Shown: positions 529 to 9,709 of the stretch, piece by piece
Numbering within the stretch: the first letter of the stretch is position 1
Layout: each line of letters begins with the position of its first letter
Notes under the pieces: generated by a model
What the model was told of the DNA's origin: nothing
What the model saw: only the letters and a program-made list of their open reading frames with translations
Databases searched by the model: none
Translations under genes and position numbers: made by a program
Assembly (NCBI GenBank): GCA_016840425.1
Contig: JAEOSI010000069.1
Location: 1 to 9,709 of the forward strand
Source of the DNA: Candidatus Wukongarchaeum yapensis
GTDB lineage: Archaea; Asgardarchaeota; Wukongarchaeia; Wukongarchaeales; Wukongarchaeaceae
Direction of reading: 5' to 3'
Length of the DNA: 9,709 nucleotides

Positions 529-1491
529 TTAAGGGTCTATGATGCCGCCTTCTGCGATTTTGAAGGTGGTTTCTGATTCTGGTAGGCATGGGCTGTCGAA
601 TATTCTTGCTACTCTGAGTTCTCCTTTTCCTTTTCTTAGGTAGACGCGGGTTGTGGCTGCGTGGGCCATTACGTGTCCTCCTACGGCTATGGTTGGGTCT
701 CCGAAGAAGGCGTCTGGTCTGGCCATGACTTGGTTTGCAACGATTACTGCTGCGTTGTTTATTTCTGCGAATCGGAGTAGTTGGTGTAGGTGTTTGTTTA
801 GCATTTGTTGCCTGCTTGCAAGGCTCTCTCTTCCCACGTATTCGGCTCTGAAGTGGGAGGTTAGGGAGTCTATTACGAGGAGGCGGATGTTTTTTTCTTT
901 CGCCATTTTTGCCGCTTTATCAGCGAGGGCTATTTGATGGTCTGTGTTAAAGGCTCTTGCCACGTATATTCCTTTCATGATTTCTTGGGGGTCTTTTCCA
1001 ACTCTTTGGGCCATGGAGATAATTCTTTCAGGGCGAAAAGTTCCTTCAGAGTCTATGTAAACTGCTTTGGCTTCTATTCCTCCTTCTTCTTCGGGTAGTT
1101 GAGCGGTTACAGTGCACATATGGCATAGTTGTGTTTTTCCTGTGCGGAATTCGCCGAAAAATTCTATCATTGCACTTGTCTCTATGCCTCCTCCGAGGAT
1201 GTTGTCTATGTTTTTGCTTCCTGTTGCGATTTTTTTAGTGTTTTGTCTGTCTTTTAAAACTTCTTCTGCCGACTTGAATCCGAGGTCTAAGGATTTTCTA
1301 GCTGCTTGTATTATTTTTGCAGCAATAGTGTCGCCAAGCCCTGTTACTGCTACAACTTCTTGTGGTGTAGCAACAGCTACGGATTCAAGGTTTAGGTATC
1401 CTGCTTCTCGAAGTTTTTCAGCTGTTGCCGGTCCTACTCCCGGTAAACTTTCAAGATCTTCAGATTCAGACAAGAGTTTTTCCACCACCAA
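529..1491 (-). CDS. radA: DNA repair and recombination protein RadA (Rad51/RadA family recombinase)
   Basis: N-terminal HhH domain (LESLPGVGPATAEKLREAGY), FxxA polymerization motif (FKSA), Walker A GEFRTGKT, YIDSEGTFRPERI, Walker B LLVIDS, L2 region NQVMARPDAFFGDP, and YLRKGKG. No intein. Start is TTG at 1491 or an adjacent GTG (1488/1485). Confidence 0.97.
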   Translation of the reverse strand: MVVEKLLSESEDLESLPGVGPATAEKLREAGYLNLESVAVATPQEVVAVTGLGDTIAAKIIQAARKSLDLGFKSAEEVLKDRQNTKKIATGSKNIDNILGGGIETSAMIEFFGEFRTGKTQLCHMCTVTAQLPEEEGGIEAKAVYIDSEGTFRPERIISMAQRVGKDPQEIMKGIYVARAFNTDHQIALADKAAKMAKEKNIRLLVIDSLTSHFRAEYVGRESLASRQQMLNKHLHQLLRFAEINNAAVIVANQVMARPDAFFGDPTIAVGGHVMAHAATTRVYLRKGKGELRVARIFDSPCLPESETTFKIAEGGIIDP

Positions 1492-1513
1492 AATAAAAAA
1501 ATAACTCTTAATG

Positions 1514-1520
1514 TTTTATA
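1514..1520 (-). promoter_or_regulatory. Candidate TATA box (TATAAAA) for a leaderless radA transcript
   Basis: TATAAAA on the minus strand, preceded by a purine-rich BRE-like stretch (GGAAAAAAATAG), 23-26 nt before the TTG/GTG starts. No RBS is visible before radA. Confidence 0.3.
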
Positions 1521-1591
1521 CTATTTTTTTCCTTTATAAAAAAGGCTATAAAATGATAAAATGTTTTCTCGATTCTTTTCTTACTGTCATA

Positions 1592-1599
1592 TTTATATA
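1592..1599 (+). promoter_or_regulatory. Candidate TATA box (TTTATATA) in the radA/nuclease divergent region
   Basis: Matches the canonical archaeal TATA consensus, about 130 nt upstream of the nuclease ATG. It also reads as TATA-like on the minus strand, so its direction is uncertain. Confidence 0.3.
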
Positions 1600-1729
1600 A
1601 CTTTTGAGGAGAGAGAGGTCCTTGAAAGTGAACAGAAATACTCATTAGAAATAAAAATTAAGGTTTTTTTGTGATCAATAATTTTTAGTTTTAGTTTGCT
1701 TGTTTATTGTTGTTCGATGGGGTTTTTTT

Positions 1730-2617
1730 ATGGGAAAAATAGTGGTGGACCGGTTTAACGTTAAGGCTTCTTTGTATCTTCTCACTCATGCTCATACTGA
1801 TCACATGCGAGGGTTGAGAAAAGGATGGAGTAAGGGACCTATTCTTTGTAGTGAGGAGACGGGTAGGGTGATTCAGGCGCTTTATGGTGTTCCTAAAAGT
1901 TTGATACCTACTATAGCACCCGGGGAAGAGATTAAGGTTTTTGGGGCTGTGATAAAGGCTTATGATGCGAATCATTGTCCTGGGGCGCTTATGTTTAAGG
2001 TGGAACGGGAGGAGGAAGGGGATGATAAGGGTAAGGTGGAGGTTTATACGGGGGATTTTCGTTTAAACGATAGGATGAGGGGGATTTTACACGAGTTTGA
2101 AGGGGCAGATGTTTGTTACTTGGACATGACTTATAACAATCCTTGTTTTATGTTTCCTCCTCAATCCCATGCGATTCAGCAAGTTATAGAGGTTTTAGAA
2201 ACATGTGAAGGTAAAGATTCTTTTGTAGGTATTTATAATATTGGGAAAAACAAGGTAGTTAAAGCTGTCTCTAAACATTTCGGTGTCCCTGTTTATGTAC
2301 CTGAGAGAACTTATAGGGTATATCAAGCTTTAGATATGGGGGAGATTGTTACAAAGAATATGGAAGATACTTGTATTTCTGCTTATTCCCGTGGTTTTTT
2401 AGAGAAGCCGAAGGTTGATAGTCCCCTGTTTTACAAGATATCTATGGGTTATACGGTGATACCTACTGGGTGGGCTTGTATAATGAAGCCAAGAAATCGG
2501 AGGGGTAGGAGGATTGAGTATGTTGCCTATTCGGAGCATAATGATTATTATGAACTTCAAGAGTTTATAAAAACGATAAAACCGAAGAAGATTGTGAATT
2601 TTCACCGTGGAAAGTAG
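1730..2617 (+). CDS. Metallo-beta-lactamase/beta-CASP nuclease, SNM1/Pso2/Apollo/Artemis (DRMBL)-like; 295 aa
   Basis: Motifs VVDRF, LTHAHTDH (HxHxDH), DANHCPGA, YTGDFR, YLDMTY..P.F.FP.Q, GIYNIGK, IPTGW, AYSEH and FIKTIKPKKIV occur in the order known from SNM1-family nucleases. ATG at 1730 is preferred over the ORF-track TTG at 1700. The fold call is firm; the SNM1 subfamily call rests on remembered motifs. Confidence 0.85.
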   Translation: MGKIVVDRFNVKASLYLLTHAHTDHMRGLRKGWSKGPILCSEETGRVIQALYGVPKSLIPTIAPGEEIKVFGAVIKAYDANHCPGALMFKVEREEEGDDKGKVEVYTGDFRLNDRMRGILHEFEGADVCYLDMTYNNPCFMFPPQSHAIQQVIEVLETCEGKDSFVGIYNIGKNKVVKAVSKHFGVPVYVPERTYRVYQALDMGEIVTKNMEDTCISAYSRGFLEKPKVDSPLFYKISMGYTVIPTGWACIMKPRNRRGRRIEYVAYSEHNDYYELQEFIKTIKPKKIVNFHRGK

Positions 2618-2656: not shown

Positions 2657-3493
2657 TTATGCTGTCTTTGGTGTCATTTTTACTTTTTCTTCTTCTGTTG
2701 TTGTTATTGTTTTTTCTTCTTCTTCGTTGCTTTCTTTTAGCATGTAGTTTATGGCGAAGTACCAGAAAATTGTCATCCATAAAAGGAAGAGGAGGAACCC
2801 TAAGTAGTCGTGTACTCTCATCATTGTGTTGTATCCGTAGTAGTATCCTGTGAGGCTTATGATTGTTAGGCGGATCCAGTTTGTTGTTAACGTGCCTATT
2901 CCACCGATTAAGAAGCTTATTCCTACCCTTTTTTTAGAGGATGCGTGACGCCCTATGTAAAGAATCATTATGGCAAAGACTATGAGGAATATGGTGGTTG
3001 AATGCACCCCGCTACATCTTGCATCTATGTAGATCGCTGAGACTTTTGAGGGGTTTTCCAGGTAGATGATTCCCATTTGGTCACCGTCTGCTGTTTCGTA
3101 AAAGGCATAGTCCGCTTCATAGTTTAAAAGGCGTAGAATATGTATTGTGGCGATTACTGCAAGTTTAACCATCTCATCCGCCATTTTTGTGTGGAGTATT
3201 ACTTCATCAAAGTGGGTTATTAAAAAGATCCAGAAAACGAAGATACCCGCAATTAAGGGCACAATCAACTCTTCCAAGGTTTTAAATTTTCTTTTTTCAT
3301 GCAGAAGCAAAAAAGCGCCAATACCTAAAAAAAGAAGACCTAAAGGCGGTAAAAAATCGTTATGGGTATGCTCATAAAGAAGGTATAAAAAGAAGGCTAT
3401 TGACCAAGACGTTATCCCTAGAATAACGCCTTTAAAACGCCTAAAAAAGGATTTCAACCCAAAAAATGAACCTTTTTCACTTGTCAATACCAC
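2657..3493 (-). CDS. Exosortase/archaeosortase family intramembrane transpeptidase
   Basis: Multiple TM helices with the family's Cys/Arg/His triad in the expected context: IDARCSGVHS, TNWIRL, RVHDYLG. GTG start with a GGTG RBS 7 nt upstream. Acidic low-complexity C-terminal tail. Confidence 0.9.
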   Translation of the reverse strand: MVLTSEKGSFFGLKSFFRRFKGVILGITSWSIAFFLYLLYEHTHNDFLPPLGLLFLGIGAFLLLHEKRKFKTLEELIVPLIAGIFVFWIFLITHFDEVILHTKMADEMVKLAVIATIHILRLLNYEADYAFYETADGDQMGIIYLENPSKVSAIYIDARCSGVHSTTIFLIVFAIMILYIGRHASSKKRVGISFLIGGIGTLTTNWIRLTIISLTGYYYGYNTMMRVHDYLGFLLFLLWMTIFWYFAINYMLKESNEEEEKTITTTEEEKVKMTPKTA

Positions 3494-3639
3494 TTAAAAG
3501 CACCTAAAAGAAATAAAATCGCAAAACTCCATTATCTAACTATTTTAAGCGTTTAAAATCTCTGCTTTCTCCATTTATAACACTATTATTTTTTGAACTT
3601 TAACGTTTCCTTTCCTTTTTTTATCGTTGTTGTTTTTTG

Positions 3640-5028
3640 TTAATCGTTCGGTTTTCCAACGGCCATATATATTACGTCCTTAAACTCTGAGACACGCTTT
3701 GATTCAAAAACTTGCCTACCGTCAACTATCACAAGAGGTTTTTTACCCGCCTGATTTACAAGTTTTTCGAGGTCTAACTCCTTATATTGTGCGTGATCCG
3801 TAGCAATTATTATACAATCAGCACCATCAACCGCTTTCATGATGTCTGGCTCAAATCTAAAAGGGAACATTCTTCCCTCATCAGCATCCCAAAGCACATC
3901 ATTAACTGTCACTAAAACCTCCCTCTTCTCCAGCTCTTTTACCAAGTCGAAGGTGGGCGAAAATCTACTCTCTTTTACCCCGCCTCTATAAGACAAGCCT
4001 AAAATCACCACTTTCGTCCCTTTAATCTCTTTCCCTATTTTCCCTAACCCTTTCTCAACTAGGTTTATTACGTGGAGAGGTGCTTCTTCATTAACCTTTC
4101 GAGCAGTCTTTGTAACCTCAACCTTTACCCTCATCTCCTCAGCTATCTTTATCACAAAATGGGGATAAACCGGTATACAATGCCCTCCAACCCCCACACC
4201 TGGATCGTGAAGATGGCAAAAAGGCTGGGAATTAGCAGCTTTTTTGACCTCAAAGTAATCCACGTCAAACCTTTCACATAAACGTGCAAGCTCATTGGCT
4301 AGTGCAATATTAGCATCCCTATAAATACCCTCAAAAACCTTAGTGGTCTCAGCAGCTTCAACACTGCTCATCTTAATAACTCCTCGCTCGCAAAAAATGG
4401 CATAAAACGCCCCTGCAACCTCCGTGCTCTGCTCATTTATCCCCCCCACAATCTTTGGATATCTTTTTGTCACATCCTCAATAACTCGCCCAACATAAGT
4501 ACGTTCAGGACTATAAACCAAGCCAAAATCTCGCCCGGCCTTAAGATTAGAACCTTTCTCAATGATGGAACGAACAAATCCGTTTGTGGTGCCTGGAGGA
4601 ACAGTACTCTCGATTATAACCACGCTACCCTTCTTCAATCCTCTCGCGATCGCCTCAGAAACAGTTAAAAGAGCGTTAAGATCAGGATCCTTACTCTCCT
4701 CATCCACCACCACAGGAACAATAACCACGATAAAATCAGCAAGTTGAACAGCCTTAACCAGATCCGTAGTAGCCCAAAGCCTTCCCTCCTTGACAAAACG
4801 CTCAATTCCCTCCCTCACTCCAGGCTCCGCTAAAAGCTCAGTACGCCCTTCATTAATCATCGAAACAACACGCTCATCAACATCAACACCAACAACTTTC
4901 GCCCCCGCAGAAGCAAAAATAACCGCTAAAGGTTGCCCCATCTTCCCCAAACCATAAACAGCAACAGTAATCCTCCCCTCACTAACAAGTCTAGGAATAT
5001 CTAAAGAAGATGCATAAAAAACGCTCAT
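3640..5028 (-). CDS. Nucleotide-sugar 6-dehydrogenase (UDP-N-acetyl-D-mannosamine/glucosamine dehydrogenase, WecC/WbpA-like)
   Basis: Rossmann motif VYGLGKMG, then ESTVPPGTT, SPER, KVFEGIYRDANIALANELA, catalytic PGVGVGGHCIP and LGLSYRGGVKESRFSP. ATG at 5028 (GTG at 5031 is the alternative). The exact sugar cannot be determined from motifs. Confidence 0.92.
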   Translation of the reverse strand: MSVFYASSLDIPRLVSEGRITVAVYGLGKMGQPLAVIFASAGAKVVGVDVDERVVSMINEGRTELLAEPGVREGIERFVKEGRLWATTDLVKAVQLADFIVVIVPVVVDEESKDPDLNALLTVSEAIARGLKKGSVVIIESTVPPGTTNGFVRSIIEKGSNLKAGRDFGLVYSPERTYVGRVIEDVTKRYPKIVGGINEQSTEVAGAFYAIFCERGVIKMSSVEAAETTKVFEGIYRDANIALANELARLCERFDVDYFEVKKAANSQPFCHLHDPGVGVGGHCIPVYPHFVIKIAEEMRVKVEVTKTARKVNEEAPLHVINLVEKGLGKIGKEIKGTKVVILGLSYRGGVKESRFSPTFDLVKELEKREVLVTVNDVLWDADEGRMFPFRFEPDIMKAVDGADCIIIATDHAQYKELDLEKLVNQAGKKPLVIVDGRQVFESKRVSEFKDVIYMAVGKPND

Positions 5029-5127
5029 CACTAAAAAACTCTCCTCATAAAAACAAGGGCTTGAATAATAGTTCTCAAACTAACTAAAAAACTCTTATAA
5101 GATTTATTATTTTTTAGGTAGTTTCAT

Positions 5128-5168
5128 AAAACAAAAATTAAAAAACTGAAAAACAAAAAAAGAAAAAA
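5128..5168 (-). terminator. Long U-rich tract downstream of the membrane-protein pair
   Basis: About 40 nt of nearly continuous T runs on the minus strand, starting 30 nt after the stop at 5198. It suggests the pair is transcriptionally separated from the dehydrogenase. Confidence 0.4.
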
Positions 5169-5197
5169 TTATTCTCATAGAGGGAGGACAAAACTCT

Positions 5198-5524
5198 TTA
5201 AAATATGGTCCTATCTTCGACTTTTTTCCTCCAGAATCTGCCCCATCCTAAAAGGACAAAAGAAGCGACGAGAGCCCCGACTCCGATAAAGATTCCTAAA
5301 AAGACAGAAGCATCTTCAACATCGCCCTCTGAGAAATATATGTTTAAAATTCCATATAGGAGACCGATGAAACCTACTACTACTCCAAGAACCGAAATTA
5401 TTATGAAACGTGTAGCATACCATTCGATTTGGGAGTAAACTTGGTCTATTATTTCCTCCCAAGTCGGTATAGGCTTTCTAACCTTTTTCGGTTTCGTAGG
5501 AATAACTACTTCTTTTTCAGACAT
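5198..5524 (-). CDS. Hypothetical 2-TM membrane protein A (108 aa), paralog of the adjacent gene
   Basis: ATG with a purine-rich RBS (GAAGGGAAGG), two hydrophobic Gly-rich segments, a WGRFW motif and a basic tail. Aligns without gaps to protein B. Confidence 0.8.
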   Translation of the reverse strand: MSEKEVVIPTKPKKVRKPIPTWEEIIDQVYSQIEWYATRFIIISVLGVVVGFIGLLYGILNIYFSEGDVEDASVFLGIFIGVGALVASFVLLGWGRFWRKKVEDRTIF

Positions 5525-5541
5525 AACCTTCCCTTCTTTCT

Positions 5542-5826
5542 TTATTTTCCATATTTTTTCTTCAATCTTTTTCCTTCACTTCGCATCCAGTAGAGACCCC
5601 AAAACACTAAGAATACGCCTATGAGAATGAAAGCTACACCAACGAAAAACCCACCGGCTATAGAAAAGGAGGTCGCTTCCTTACCATAAATAGCGAAGGC
5701 AAGAATTGAATAGACAATGCCTATAGCTCCTACAGCTACTGCCAAAACACTAAAGACAATGTATTTTGCTGCTATTGCGATTATATCAGCACTAGTTTCC
5801 AAATCTATATCTTTTGATTCAGACAT
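5542..5826 (-). CDS. Hypothetical 2-TM membrane protein B (94 aa), paralog of the adjacent gene
   Basis: GGAGG RBS at 5833-5837, 6 nt before ATG 5826, so the start is moved from the track's GTG 5853. Two TM segments, a WGLYW motif and a basic tail; 17-nt gap to gene A. Confidence 0.8.
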   Translation of the reverse strand: MSESKDIDLETSADIIAIAAKYIVFSVLAVAVGAIGIVYSILAFAIYGKEATSFSIAGGFFVGVAFILIGVFLVFWGLYWMRSEGKRLKKKYGK

Positions 5827-5938
5827 CTTAATCCTCCACAATTCACGGACCAAATCTTATAAATTTTACTTATAACACTTTAAGGGTTTAACAACATTAG
5901 TCGAATTTAAAATTTTTCACCATTTTGAAAAAATTTTG

Positions 5939-6910
5939 TTAGAAAGGGTTGTTAAGCTCATCAAGTTCAAAATCTGACCGGGCTACATAAGATATATATC
6001 CTTTATTTGAAGCCTTCGTCAAATAATCGTCTATTCTATGCTTATTCTCTCCAAAGTACCCTGTACCATCATCAACATAATCCACAGAGAAAACAACCTT
6101 ATCCGCACCACTTATATCATCCAAATATTGGATTCTTTCCTCTACATCACTAGAGGGCAGAGGAGTTATACCATCATACCATATCGACTCAACTCCTATC
6201 CCCGATATTGTTTCCAAATACGAACCATCCGCATCGTAATCCAATATTCTCTCTCCATTTTGAGGTATTATGTAAAAGCCCGCTTTACCTTTTTCATCCC
6301 TGCAATAGGAGGCAATCTCTACGAGAAAATCTATCATTCTCCCTGCAGTTTCTTTCTCAGAAGGATGTATATCTTCGCCATTATCAGGGTCACTCCAATA
6401 TTCAAATCCGTCTATGATGTCAAGGTAAACGCCTAAGAAGCCTTGATTTATGACCTTGTCTAAGTATTCTTTTACGATCGTTTTCCATCTCTCTTCCCAG
6501 TACTTTACTTTGTAATTACCTACCCATTCAGTGTTCTCTTTTCCTAACCAACTTGGTGGATTTTTGTTCCATTCATCTTGCCAATAAAAACGATAATCTT
6601 CAGCTTCTCCGATGCTGATATATGCAATAGGTATTATGCCGTTTTCTTCTATATTATTGATCTCTTCAAGCGTGTATTTGTTTTCCTCTGTCCCGTCAGC
6701 GGAGTAGTCCATAACTATTAAGTCGAAATCTGAACTAGCAATCAGGTCTGGATCAGCGTCTTGAAGCTGGTATACCCAGCTTTCAACATCGACAAGCGGT
6801 TGATCTTGTATATCGTAGCTATAATCATTACCGTTTTTATAGTGAGTGTAGGCCATGAAAGCGGATAAAGTAGCTACCATTATCACTGCTAATGTTATTA
6901 TTTTCTTCAT
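5939..6910 (-). CDS. Secreted GH114-family glycoside hydrolase (MJ1477/TM1410-type, putative endo-alpha-1,4-galactosaminidase)
   Basis: N-terminal signal/anchor (MKKIITLAVIMVATLSAF), WVYQLQ, AYISIGEAEDYRFYW, ENTEWVGNYKVKYW, GVYLDIIDGFEY, IIPQNG and GIGVES. Very acidic. GGAGG RBS upstream. Confidence 0.88.
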   Translation of the reverse strand: MKKIITLAVIMVATLSAFMAYTHYKNGNDYSYDIQDQPLVDVESWVYQLQDADPDLIASSDFDLIVMDYSADGTEENKYTLEEINNIEENGIIPIAYISIGEAEDYRFYWQDEWNKNPPSWLGKENTEWVGNYKVKYWEERWKTIVKEYLDKVINQGFLGVYLDIIDGFEYWSDPDNGEDIHPSEKETAGRMIDFLVEIASYCRDEKGKAGFYIIPQNGERILDYDADGSYLETISGIGVESIWYDGITPLPSSDVEERIQYLDDISGADKVVFSVDYVDDGTGYFGENKHRIDDYLTKASNKGYISYVARSDFELDELNNPF

Positions 6911-7003
6911 TTTTAGGACTGCCCTCCAAAAACCTCCTTAATTTAAAATTATTAGAGAAAATATAAAAATTACTGGGAGAGGAAGGGGTTGTTTAAAGAT
7001 TTT

Positions 7004-8188
7004 TTAGTTTTTGAGGGCTAGGGTTTTTTGGTAGAGGTTTAGGGTTTTTTTTGCTATGTTTTCCCAGCTGAACTCTTTTCTTGCTTTTTCTTTTGCTTTT
7101 TTTGCTATTTTTTTTGATAAGAGTTTGTCTTCAAGGAGAATTATTATGCCTTCTGCTAAAGCTTTTGGGTTTCTTGGCTCTACTAAGTAACTTGTGGTAA
7201 GGTGTTCTGTTATCTCTCTTATACCGTTTATATTTGTGGCGATGACTGGTTTTTCCATGGCCATTGCTTCCATTACGAGGACTGAGGTTGCTTCCACGAT
7301 ACTTGGCACTGCTACTATGTCTGCTGCAGCCATGTAGTTTGGGATTTTTTCGTGGGGTAAGCTTCCCAAAAAAAGGATGTCTTCGCCTATTTTGAGCCCT
7401 AAATCTTTTGCTTTTTTTACGAGTTTTTGTTTTTCCGGTCCTTCTCCTATGATTACGAACCTTACCTTGTGTCGTTTTAAAACTATTGGAGCGCTCTCTA
7501 CCAGATATTTTACGCCACATTTTGGGACAAGACGCCTTGCAGTCATTATTATTGGAAGATCCCTTGGAATGGCGTCTGTTAGGGGTTTATTGGGAAAAAA
7601 TCGGTTTAGGTTTACTCCGTTGAATATGACGTGAACTTTTTCTTTTCCTACGCCCCATTCTACAACTTTTTTTGCGAAAGAGGATTCTGTGTGGATTTGA
7701 GCATCTACAAGCTTTCCCACGAGGGTTGCTATTATTCTTTCTGCTGCTTTGTATACTCTTGCTTTTCTTTTACTTCTTAGAAGATGCCATACTTCGTAGT
7801 AGGAACCATGGATCGTGTTTATGCTAACTGCATGTTTTAGTTTTCCTACGAGGTAAGCTGTTAGACCTGCTGTGTATATATGTCCATGAATTATGTCAAA
7901 TCTTTCTTGGAAACCGAGAATTTTTTGAACAGCTAGAGGTGGAAAGAGTAGCTGTCTTGTAAAGGTTAGAACATCCGGATTCCAAGTTCTTTTCATCAAT
8001 CCAAATTTTTCTGTCCGAATTACGCGTATTCCATCAATCCAAACTTCTTTTTTTGTGTGAGGAGTGTTTCCTGTAAGAAAAGTCACACTTTGACCCATTC
8101 TTACCAAAGCTTTTGAAAGCTCAACAATGTGAACCTCTACACCTCCTGTAAAAAAAGCATCATCCAAGGGACCTAATTCGTAAGCCAT
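7004..8188 (-). CDS. Glycosyltransferase family 4 (GT-B, retaining)
   Basis: GGVEVHIVEL, IIHGH, FNGVNL, ARRLVPKCG, and the Ex7E motif in VPSIVEATSVLVMEAMAMEKPVIAT; FSWENIA near the C-terminus. The true start may be a few codons upstream (CTG at 8200; see findings). Confidence 0.93.
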   Translation of the reverse strand: MAYELGPLDDAFFTGGVEVHIVELSKALVRMGQSVTFLTGNTPHTKKEVWIDGIRVIRTEKFGLMKRTWNPDVLTFTRQLLFPPLAVQKILGFQERFDIIHGHIYTAGLTAYLVGKLKHAVSINTIHGSYYEVWHLLRSKRKARVYKAAERIIATLVGKLVDAQIHTESSFAKKVVEWGVGKEKVHVIFNGVNLNRFFPNKPLTDAIPRDLPIIMTARRLVPKCGVKYLVESAPIVLKRHKVRFVIIGEGPEKQKLVKKAKDLGLKIGEDILFLGSLPHEKIPNYMAAADIVAVPSIVEATSVLVMEAMAMEKPVIATNINGIREITEHLTTSYLVEPRNPKALAEGIIILLEDKLLSKKIAKKAKEKARKEFSWENIAKKTLNLYQKTLALKN

Positions 8189-8312
8189 GAGGATGTTCAG
8201 CGTGCATTTAACCTCCTAAAAAGCCAAAGACGAAGATTTTAAATCTTTTTTTGGGATCTTTTAAAGTATACAAGTAAAAGAAAGATAGTGTTGTTTTGCT
8301 TCTTAGTGTTAG

Positions 8313-8320
8313 TTTTATAA
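8313..8320 (+). promoter_or_regulatory. Candidate TATA box (TTTTATAA) for a leaderless methyltransferase transcript
   Basis: Ends 25 nt before the GTG at 8346, the spacing expected for a leaderless archaeal mRNA. Confidence 0.4.
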
Positions 8321-8345
8321 CTAAATAAAAGTATGGTGAGAAGAA

Positions 8346-9194
8346 GTGAGGGGTGAAAAAAACAGGATTTACCTCATGGATTGTTTAGAAGGTATGAAGA
8401 CGCTCTTAGACCCAGAAGAGGTTGATGTTATAGTTACCTCTCCTCCATACAACATAGGGGTGGAGTACAACAAGTATGATGATACCATTCCAAGGGAGAA
8501 TTATTTAAACTGGATGGAGGAAGTTGCCAAAGAATGTAAAAGGGTTTTGAAACGTGAAGGTTCTTTCTTCTTAAATATAGGACACAAACCTACAGATCTT
8601 TGGGTTCCTTGGGAGGTTGCTTTTACACTAAGGAAATATTTTACGCTTCAGAACGTAATTACTTGGGTTAAGTCTATAGCTATCCAGAAAGAGGATGTTG
8701 GGAAATATCCGAATATTAAGGGAGATATAACTGTTGGTCATTACAAGCCTATCGGCGGGGAGCGTTTCCTAAATGACTGCTTTGAATATATATTCCACTT
8801 TACGAAGTCTGGTGATGTTAAGCTTAACAGGTTAGCTATAGGCGTTCCATATCAAGATAAATCCAATATCGGAAGATGGAAGTCTGCAACCAAAGACTTA
8901 AGATGCAGGGGGAACACATGGTTCATTCCCTATGAAACGATAAAGTATAAGCACAAAGAGAGACCGCATCCCTCCACGTTTCCACCAAAGTTACCCATGA
9001 TGTGCATAGAGCTACATGGATTAAATAAGACAGATCTTGTTTTAGACCCGTTCATAGGTATAGGGAACACAGCCATAGCATGTATGAAACTTGGTGTGAA
9101 TTACATAGGTTTCGAGATAGATGAAATATACGTTAAGATAGCTGAACAAAGGATTAGAGGAAAACTCCTATATTATGCGAGCGAAACTCTCTAA
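8346..9194 (+). CDS. Site-specific DNA methyltransferase, beta class, probably N4-cytosine (N6-adenine not excluded); no adjacent restriction enzyme
   Basis: Catalytic motif IV VTSPPYN near the N-terminus, HPSTFP, and SAM-binding motif [12 protein letters not shown] plus GFEID near the C-terminus, which is the beta-class motif order. Confidence 0.92.
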
Positions 9195-9246
9195 ATATGT
9201 TCTCTCTATATGAATTGTTAGCTTGGTTTTCTTAGGGGTCTTTTAG

Positions 9247-9709
9247 TTGGTTTTAAAGGGTGTTTCTATTGTTATTCCTGCTTGTAATGAAGTTTCTACG
9301 GTTAGGGATGTTGTGAACGATGTTGTAAATGTGGTTTCTCGTATTTCTGGCATCTCTTTTTTTGAGGTTATTCTGGTTGATGATGGGTCTACGGATGGTA
9401 CTTTTGAAGTTGTCAAGGATCTTGGTGTAGTTGTCTTAAGGAATAAGGTTAATAGGGGTAAGGGTTATTCTTTAAGAAGGGGCTTTAAGAGGGCTAGGGG
9501 GAAGGTAATTGTCACCCTCGATGCTGATGGATCTCATTTCCCTGAAGATTTGCCATTGGTTCTTACTCCCCTATTAAAGGGAGAGGTTGATATGGTTATA
9601 GGGTCAAGGTTTGGGCATAAACAAGCTTTTTTCACCCGTGCCCTTAATATTGCTGGGAACTCCTTGTTTAACATCTTTTTTTACATTCTTACGGGTAGGA
9701 GGTTTTCTG
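9247..9709 (+). CDS. Glycosyltransferase family 2 (DPM/polyprenol-phosphate glycosyltransferase-like); runs off the right edge
   Basis: Not in the ORF track; translated by hand from TTG at 9247, directly after an in-frame TAG: (M)VLKGVSIVIPACNE...EVILVDDGSTDGT...NRGKGYSLRRGF...VTLDADGSHFPEDL...DMVIGSRF. It has the DDGSTD and DxD motifs; GGGG RBS-like run upstream. Confidence 0.93.
   Translation, partial: MVLKGVSIVIPACNEVSTVRDVVNDVVNVVSRISGISFFEVILVDDGSTDGTFEVVKDLGVVVLRNKVNRGKGYSLRRGFKRARGKVIVTLDADGSHFPEDLPLVLTPLLKGEVDMVIGSRFGHKQAFFTRALNIAGNSLFNIFFYILTGRRFS

Follow-up and report, generated by a model that had tools for sequence, protein, structure and literature searches.

The window considered here is a contig of 9,709 nucleotides (nt) from Candidatus Wukongarchaeum yapensis (JAEOSI010000069.1 of assembly GCA_016840425.1), in which a gene for a RadA recombinase and a gene for a compact nuclease of the SNM1/Pso2 type are transcribed divergently from one intergenic spacer. 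The explanation that we regard as probable is that these are two genuine DNA-repair genes, brought together by a rearrangement within a single Asgard genus, which do not constitute a conserved module. The adjacency to radA is a genus-level novelty. The order of the genes does not define a radA–SNM1 pathway, and a MutS-like ATPase has better support as the partner of the nuclease. The gene pair is no new system, and its nuclease adds a new Asgard member to a known family.

Gene order at SNM1-like loci

The window is the entire contig C41 of a metagenome-assembled genome of 2.16 Mb with a completeness of 92% (G000). As grouped by the search tool, the class of this genome contains only three species genomes, namely G000 and G001, which make up genus g1, and G002, the only other genus. 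Two metagenome contigs were also used, L117 with an 86%-identical nuclease and the G002-like L118. Family f21 consists of a single genus (g36) and family f22 of two genomes, G107 and G108.

The preliminary description of this DNA proposed the gene pair as a co-regulated module ancestral to the eukaryotic pathway and suggested a synteny survey of radA neighborhoods. We searched for RadA by tblastn near SNM1-like genes, within 1.5–8 kb on each side, at 30 and 48 overlapping loci that correspond to approximately 45 distinct places in Asgard and bacterial genomes. Among them, radA adjoined the nuclease gene only in the same-genus genome G001 (locus L031) and on contig L117, the latter keeping the order radA, nuclease, archaeosortase, and sugar dehydrogenase. 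No such pairing was present in the second genus of the class (G002 and L118), in the sampled loci of f21 and f22 (23 of 24 genomes' worth), or at 18 or more bacterial loci. In G002, the nuclease gene has a UPF0047 gene on one side and an aldo-keto reductase gene on the other, and all five RadA-like matches of this genome are on contigs other than that of the nuclease. L118 lacks the reductase, and its nuclease gene is flanked by a gene for UPF0047/YjbQ and one for an ELP3-type radical-SAM protein. The neighbors of the bacterial homologues were heterogeneous; none recurred, and no repair genes were adjacent. Adjacency across distant genomes possessing both genes was not found, and the proposal of a conserved ancestral module is not supported, the arrangement being kept only in genus g1 and on L117.

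The junction itself is no assembly artefact, because it is bridged by contigs from three other public studies (X1, 577–2800; X2, 1133–2800; X9, 1133–2237). The two genes form no operon since they are divergent. Contigs of the metatranscriptome run X20 covered only 548–990 in radA and 2731–2800 and left out the nuclease gene and the spacer, and contigs from RNA libraries cannot show starts, strand, or absence.

Outside the class, another neighbor recurs. Directly 3' of the SNM1-like gene and on the same strand, a gene for an ATPase of approximately 735 amino acids (aa) with a helix-hairpin-helix (HhH) domain and MutS domain V was present in 13 loci of f21 (g36), in G107, and in G108. Examples are G107:C80:1-5279 (L087), G108:C600 (L064/L089), and L074:7923-11112. 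Given this gene order in other families, the HhH-MutS-like ATPase is the conserved genomic partner of the nuclease in Asgard archaea, and synteny there suggests that the two proteins would cooperate. No publication on the SNM1 and HhH-MutS pair of these Hodarchaeales-type Asgard archaea was found. The nuclease of the window belongs to the same Asgard clade (support 98/95), and G000 has the same MutS-like ATPase. Unlike in the Hodarchaeales-type arrangement, the pair is split in G000: the MutS-like orthologue is encoded on another contig at C92:3806-5956, where its neighbors are the unrelated genes of an RNA polymerase subunit and of a SAM hydroxide adenosyltransferase, and the nuclease gene faces a radA paralogue. 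In the reading preferred here, the MutS-like partner gene would have been separated onto C92. In G107, a RecJ-like DHH/DHHA1 gene and a calcineurin-like phosphoesterase (Metallophos) gene precede the SNM1-like gene, and this locus is possibly a four-gene nuclease/ATPase operon.

Identity of the nuclease

The nuclease gene lies in an open reading frame (ORF) at 1700–2617 of the plus strand. Its start is most likely the codon at 1730, an ATG in G000 as well as L117 and a GTG in G001; the gene at 1730–2617 would thus encode 295 aa. Residue numbers given below refer to the 305-aa ORF beginning at 1700. Pfam, phmmer, and Foldseek agreed in assigning the protein to compact SNM1/Pso2-type nucleases with a metallo-beta-lactamase (MBL) and a beta-CASP domain. 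The Pfam domains were Lactamase_B_2 and DRMBL (27.5 bits for DRMBL, with a cutoff of 22). In a phmmer search against all sequences of the PDB, human SNM1A was matched with an E-value of 1.8e-29, Apollo with 1e-22, Artemis with 3e-10, and CPSF73 with 4.8e-4. An AlphaFold2 model built from an alignment of 33 sequences reached a pLDDT of 89.9. Foldseek ranked SNM1A first for this model (TM-score 0.81), followed by Apollo, Artemis, and then CPSF73, and the top 20 structure matches in Swiss-Prot were without exception proteins of eukaryotes (SNM1, Pso2, Apollo, LIG6, or Artemis). The nuclease is thus of the SNM1 type and closer to SNM1A and Apollo than to CPSF73, RNase J, or tRNase Z. These results, together with the DRMBL domain and the SNM1A match, bear out the earlier identification of an SNM1-like nuclease.

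MBL motifs 1–4 (D17; H30-x-H32-x-D34-H35; H92 in NHCPG; D119 in TGDFR) do not vary among 33 family members. The same applies to beta-CASP motifs A and B (D142 in LDxTY and H280 in YSEH), which were aligned with their SNM1A equivalents.

In beta-CASP nucleases, Val at motif C marks DNA-type enzymes and His marks RNA-type enzymes. Instead of the Val of SNM1A, the window nuclease has His302 at what we take to be this position; the placement was made by eye, the computed alignment with SNM1A ending before it in KPKKIV/KPQKII. This residue, the state of RNA-processing members, and a weak Pfam RMMBL match at residues 271–299 (E-value 1.5e-4) would fit a nuclease acting on RNA like the archaeal beta-CASP proteins aCPSF1/2 and RNase J, for which the adjacent radA would be irrelevant. 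We consider such an activity very unlikely. The similarity to SNM1A and Apollo is approximately 25 orders of magnitude stronger than that to CPSF73, and the ranking of folds puts SNM1A, Apollo, and Artemis before CPSF73. Most members of the compact family end one residue short of the motif C position, so that its residue is no requirement of the family and is uninformative here. Also, the conserved Asgard neighbors are of the DNA type, that is, the HhH-MutS-like ATPase and, in G107, the RecJ-like DHH and Metallophos proteins as well. The assignment to SNM1-type DNA nucleases is part of the preferred reading.

The closest known systems are human SNM1A (DCLRE1A; PDB 5ahr, 4b87, 8cg9), Apollo (SNM1B; 5aho, 7a1f), and yeast Pso2, with which the nuclease shares the MBL and beta-CASP domain over nearly its whole length. 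Compared to SNM1A, the identity is 28–29%, and MBL motifs 1–4 and beta-CASP motifs A and B are the same in kind. In contrast to SNM1A, Apollo, and Pso2, the protein has 295 aa instead of 532–1040 and is devoid of N- and C-terminal extensions (UBZ, PIP, or TRF2-binding regions). It further differs from SNM1A in its archaeal origin, in the His instead of Val at motif C, and in that its activity is a predicted one. The N-terminal SNM1 domain of eukaryotic DNA ligase 6 (LIG6; Arabidopsis F4HPZ9, Pelomyxa) is similar as well and belongs to the top-scoring relatives that the compact prokaryotic family has in eukaryotes, with a TM-score of 0.82 at 30% identity and 231 bits on the family profile. Unlike LIG6, in which the SNM1 domain is fused to an ATP-dependent ligase, the window nuclease stands alone, with no ligase nearby. 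Bacterial ligase-associated exonucleases (TIGR04122; Lhr-MPE-LigC-Exo clusters) are likewise MBL-fold DNA-repair nucleases of similar size. TIGR04122 was the only NCBIfam model matched, but the score of 73.8 bits was below its cutoff of 325, and neither a ligase nor Lhr is present in the window or at related loci.

Altogether, the protein may be regarded as a minimal stand-alone member of the SNM1/Pso2/Apollo group, consisting of an MBL core with a beta-CASP insert and nothing else. By analogy with SNM1A and Apollo, the HxHxDH motif, H92, D119, and H280 would hold a two-metal center, and the enzyme would hydrolyze DNA in the 5'→3' direction from a 5'-phosphate end. It could trim damaged or blocked ends in this way and possibly digest past lesions.

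In three G002-like homologues (P0008, P0009, and P0015), the C-terminal tail ends in QATL, QSTLF, or QSTFL and resembles a degenerate PCNA-interacting (PIP) motif. The window nuclease has no such tail.

Distribution and phylogeny of the nuclease family

SNM1A, Apollo, Artemis, and Pso2 are usually regarded as eukaryotic inventions. The family of the window nuclease is compact, with a length of approximately 290 aa. In a profile search of 1.84 billion representative sequences, approximately 35 compact clusters scored above 240 bits and were followed by a continuum of long proteins with 200–230 bits. Those of the long proteins that are named came from eukaryotes and included Pelomyxa DNA ligase 6, the DCLRE1A of a crustacean, and an orchid protein. 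One coral protein (P0062, Acropora digitifera, 1141 aa) scored 364 bits on the compact family profile compared to approximately 200–230 bits for other eukaryotes; despite this score it falls within the eukaryotic clade of the tree described below.

Among species-representative genomes, the compact family was present in the class of the window (G001 and G002 besides the window itself) and otherwise in bacteria. The bacterial holders were mostly Planctomycetota/Phycisphaerae, with further members in Spirochaetota, KSB1, Eisenbacteria, and Riflebacteria. SNM1-like genes were detected in 26 of 400 Asgard genomes at E ≤ 1e-22, namely all three genomes of the window's own class, 21 of the 22 in f21, and both in f22.

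According to our maximum-likelihood reconstruction, with MBL proteins of approximately 320–350 aa (P0052–P0055) as the outgroup to the SNM1-type clade, all copies from Asgard archaea group in a single clade (98/95) and the eukaryotic ones in a second (100/99). The backbone joining the Asgard, bacterial, and eukaryotic clades lacks resolution. Forcing Asgard and eukaryotic sequences together cost 18.3 log-likelihood units (approximately unbiased test, p 0.10), and vertical descent from Asgard archaea to eukaryotes is thus neither supported nor rejected. In one comparative study (PMC3969565), the origin of DCLRE1B is placed in 'early eukaryotes'. The accessible literature, which excludes many subscription papers, yielded no account of an SNM1 from Asgard archaea or of a compact prokaryotic one; this is no proof of novelty. 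With its intact motifs and its inheritance as a single clade in a few Asgard lineages of the Heimdall/Hod type, the compact SNM1-type enzyme provides a small tractable prokaryotic model of the family, and the clade bears on the origin of the eukaryotic crosslink and end-processing nucleases.

The radA gene and its paralogues

The ORF at 529–1491 of the minus strand encodes a RadA protein, in agreement with the Rad51-like recombinase named in the preliminary description. It passed both RadA equivalog models, NF003301 with 470 bits (cutoff 259) and TIGR02236 with 460 bits (cutoff 361), and matched Pfam Rad51 with an E-value of 4.8e-95. An N-terminal HHH_5 (HhH) domain, Walker A (GEFRTGKT), and Walker B (LLVIDS) are present as in archaeal RadA and eukaryotic Rad51-Dmc1, and residues G113, G118, K119, and D208 are invariant. 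Codon five of the long ORF is TGA in both close relatives (G001 and L117), which places the conserved start at the TTG of 1473–1471. From this start the gene covers 529–1473 and encodes 314 aa. The Shine-Dalgarno-like run GGTGGTGG at 1482–1489 (minus strand), 9–16 nt 5' of the TTG, is invariant in the three lineages and may serve in translation initiation.

Three full-length RadA paralogues with HhH and Rad51 domains are encoded in G000: the window copy (C41:529-1473), C108:12830-13765 with 60% identity to it, and C118:3631-4557 with 44%. Several copies are usual in this group, as G002 has four or five RadA-like copies and 2–5 are common among Asgard genomes. In the RadA tree, the C108 copy joined two copies of G002 (93/94) and the C118 copy another one (100/100). 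The window copy forms, with its G001 orthologue, a long branch of its own that has no firm position deeper in the tree, and it has no orthologue in G002. Judging by its motifs and scores, this RadA looks catalytically intact and functional.

Identity of amino acids is far above that of four-fold degenerate sites in both genes (95% vs. 77% for radA; 86% vs. 73% for the nuclease), which indicates purifying selection on both. A complex prediction for RadA and the nuclease gave a score of 0.00 against a mark of 0.32, which is evidence neither for nor against an interaction.

Conservation of the intergenic spacer

The head-to-head layout with a spacer of 238 nt at 1492–1729 is as described previously; counted from the corrected radA start, it measures 256 nt. 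TATA-like strings are expected in it, since its G+C content is 23.5%. Such strings do exist on both strands, as had been reported, but the frequency of TTTAWATA in the window is not above chance (2 observed vs. 2.8 expected). The only exact match in the spacer is TTTATATA at 1592–1599 (plus strand), which is invariant in the three lineages and lies 131 nt from the nuclease ATG. The palindromic TTTATAAA, highlighted in the preliminary description, is indeed present at 1533–1540, but it is not conserved: both relatives have TTTTTAAA, and three DNA runs show an extra A at this place.

Each gene probably has its own promoter near its own start, as far as can be judged from the position of conserved strings. 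For radA, the candidate TATA box is TATAAAA at 1514–1520 (minus strand), approximately 44 nt 5' of the TTG and invariant in G000, G001, and L117; a promoter role is suggested by the usual archaeal spacing between TATA box and start. For the nuclease gene, the promoter would be located at 1653–1663 or in inserted DNA. The candidate TATA box AAAAATTAAGG at 1653–1663 is at the end of a block (1622–1668) that is the same in G000, G001, and L117 except for one change at 1652, and it precedes the nuclease start by approximately 29 nt in the two relatives. In alignments, G000 alone has an insertion of approximately 45 nt at 1676–1720, between the conserved block and the nuclease ATG, which moves the block away from the start. 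The approximately 100 nt between the two candidate promoters carry conserved elements. A tiny frame (TTG AAA GTG AAC AGA AAT ACT CAT TAG) was noticed at 1622–1648 of the plus strand, just 3' of an GGAGAGAGAGG run.

The insertion, which parts the nuclease from its conserved upstream block, and the redundancy allowed by three RadA paralogues would be consistent with decay of one of the genes, either as a redundant RadA or as a relic nuclease, in which case the neighborhood would be meaningless. We regard this as highly improbable. Both frames are intact, amino acid identity exceeds that of four-fold sites as given above, the catalytic residues are all kept, and the window RadA scores as high on NF003301 as the C108 copy (470 vs. 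466 bits).

In the alignable part, the spacer was 89–96% identical among G000, G001, and L117 (89–92% in comparisons involving the window), compared to 73–83% for four-fold degenerate sites of the flanking genes. Between the window and L117, 21 of 193 spacer positions and 81 of 325 four-fold sites were mismatched (89% vs. 75% identity; Fisher p 9e-5). The spacer is consequently under constraint and may hold some shared or adjacent control element. No Rfam family matched 1400–1800 at E ≤ 1, a search of the genome for a second copy of the conserved block as a regulon motif gave only short matches at chance level, and the inverted and direct repeats in the spacer were low-complexity A/T runs only. 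A hairpin at 1600–1629 was considered as an RNA element (z = −1.95) and rejected, as substitutions in the relatives break its pairs without compensation.

Several of the observations weigh against a mere juxtaposition of two repair genes. The adjacency survives in three species-level lineages, with nucleases down to 86% identity; the spacer is conserved beyond synonymous sites, which would fit a shared regulatory region; and the RadA concerned is a lineage-specific paralogue, as might be expected of a dedicated pairing. On the side of the nuclease, the His at motif C is the RNA-type state, and activity on DNA is predicted by analogy for the compact family as a whole.

The first three of these points would agree with a divergent, co-regulated unit with a control site in the spacer, in which trimmed ends or unhooked crosslinks would pass from the nuclease to this genus-specific RadA paralogue. 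Such a unit would also make sense mechanistically. In homologous recombination, 5' resection precedes the loading of RadA, and RadA would form presynaptic filaments on the 3' tails left by resection. A relay from the nuclease to RadA, with resection followed by strand exchange, is plausible, but gene order and conservation do not indicate it. Spacer constraint is the one finding that still speaks for co-regulation; nevertheless, we judge the co-regulated unit unlikely. The pairing is absent at every other SNM1-like locus examined, including those of the class's other genus, and elsewhere the conserved partner is the MutS-like ATPase. Both the lack of conservation of the palindromic TATA string and the chance-level frequency of TATA-like strings count against it. 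Finally, the three lineages are so close that a common gene order would be expected even in the absence of selection, the archaeosortase and sugar dehydrogenase genes being syntenic as well.

Still less likely, in our estimation, is a broader scenario in which, within this genus, the SNM1-type nuclease was rewired from an ancestral MutS-like partner to a dedicated, lineage-specific RadA paralogue, with both under control of the conserved spacer block at 1540–1670. The result would be a prokaryotic unit leading from resection or unhooking to strand exchange and mirroring Pso2/SNM1A upstream of Rad51, and eukaryotes would in addition have inherited their SNM1 family vertically from the Asgard clade.

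Other genes of the window

Outside the two repair genes, domain annotation shows the window to hold a cell-envelope glycan cluster and no repair island. Within 2657–9708, this cluster comprises an archaeosortase-like protein (below the ArtC cutoff), an NDP-sugar dehydrogenase, two small membrane proteins, and GH114, GT4, and GT2 proteins. A type II-like N4/N6 DNA methyltransferase gene at 8346–9194 is embedded in this cluster, with no nuclease partner in view. The SNM1-type nuclease, RadA, and the MutS-like protein had no match to a defense system in PADLOC. At 3–284 of the minus strand, the end of the contig truncates a gene of a Pol-beta-type nucleotidyltransferase (MNT-like), the product of which matched the PADLOC candidate defense family PDC-S09 with 1e-29.

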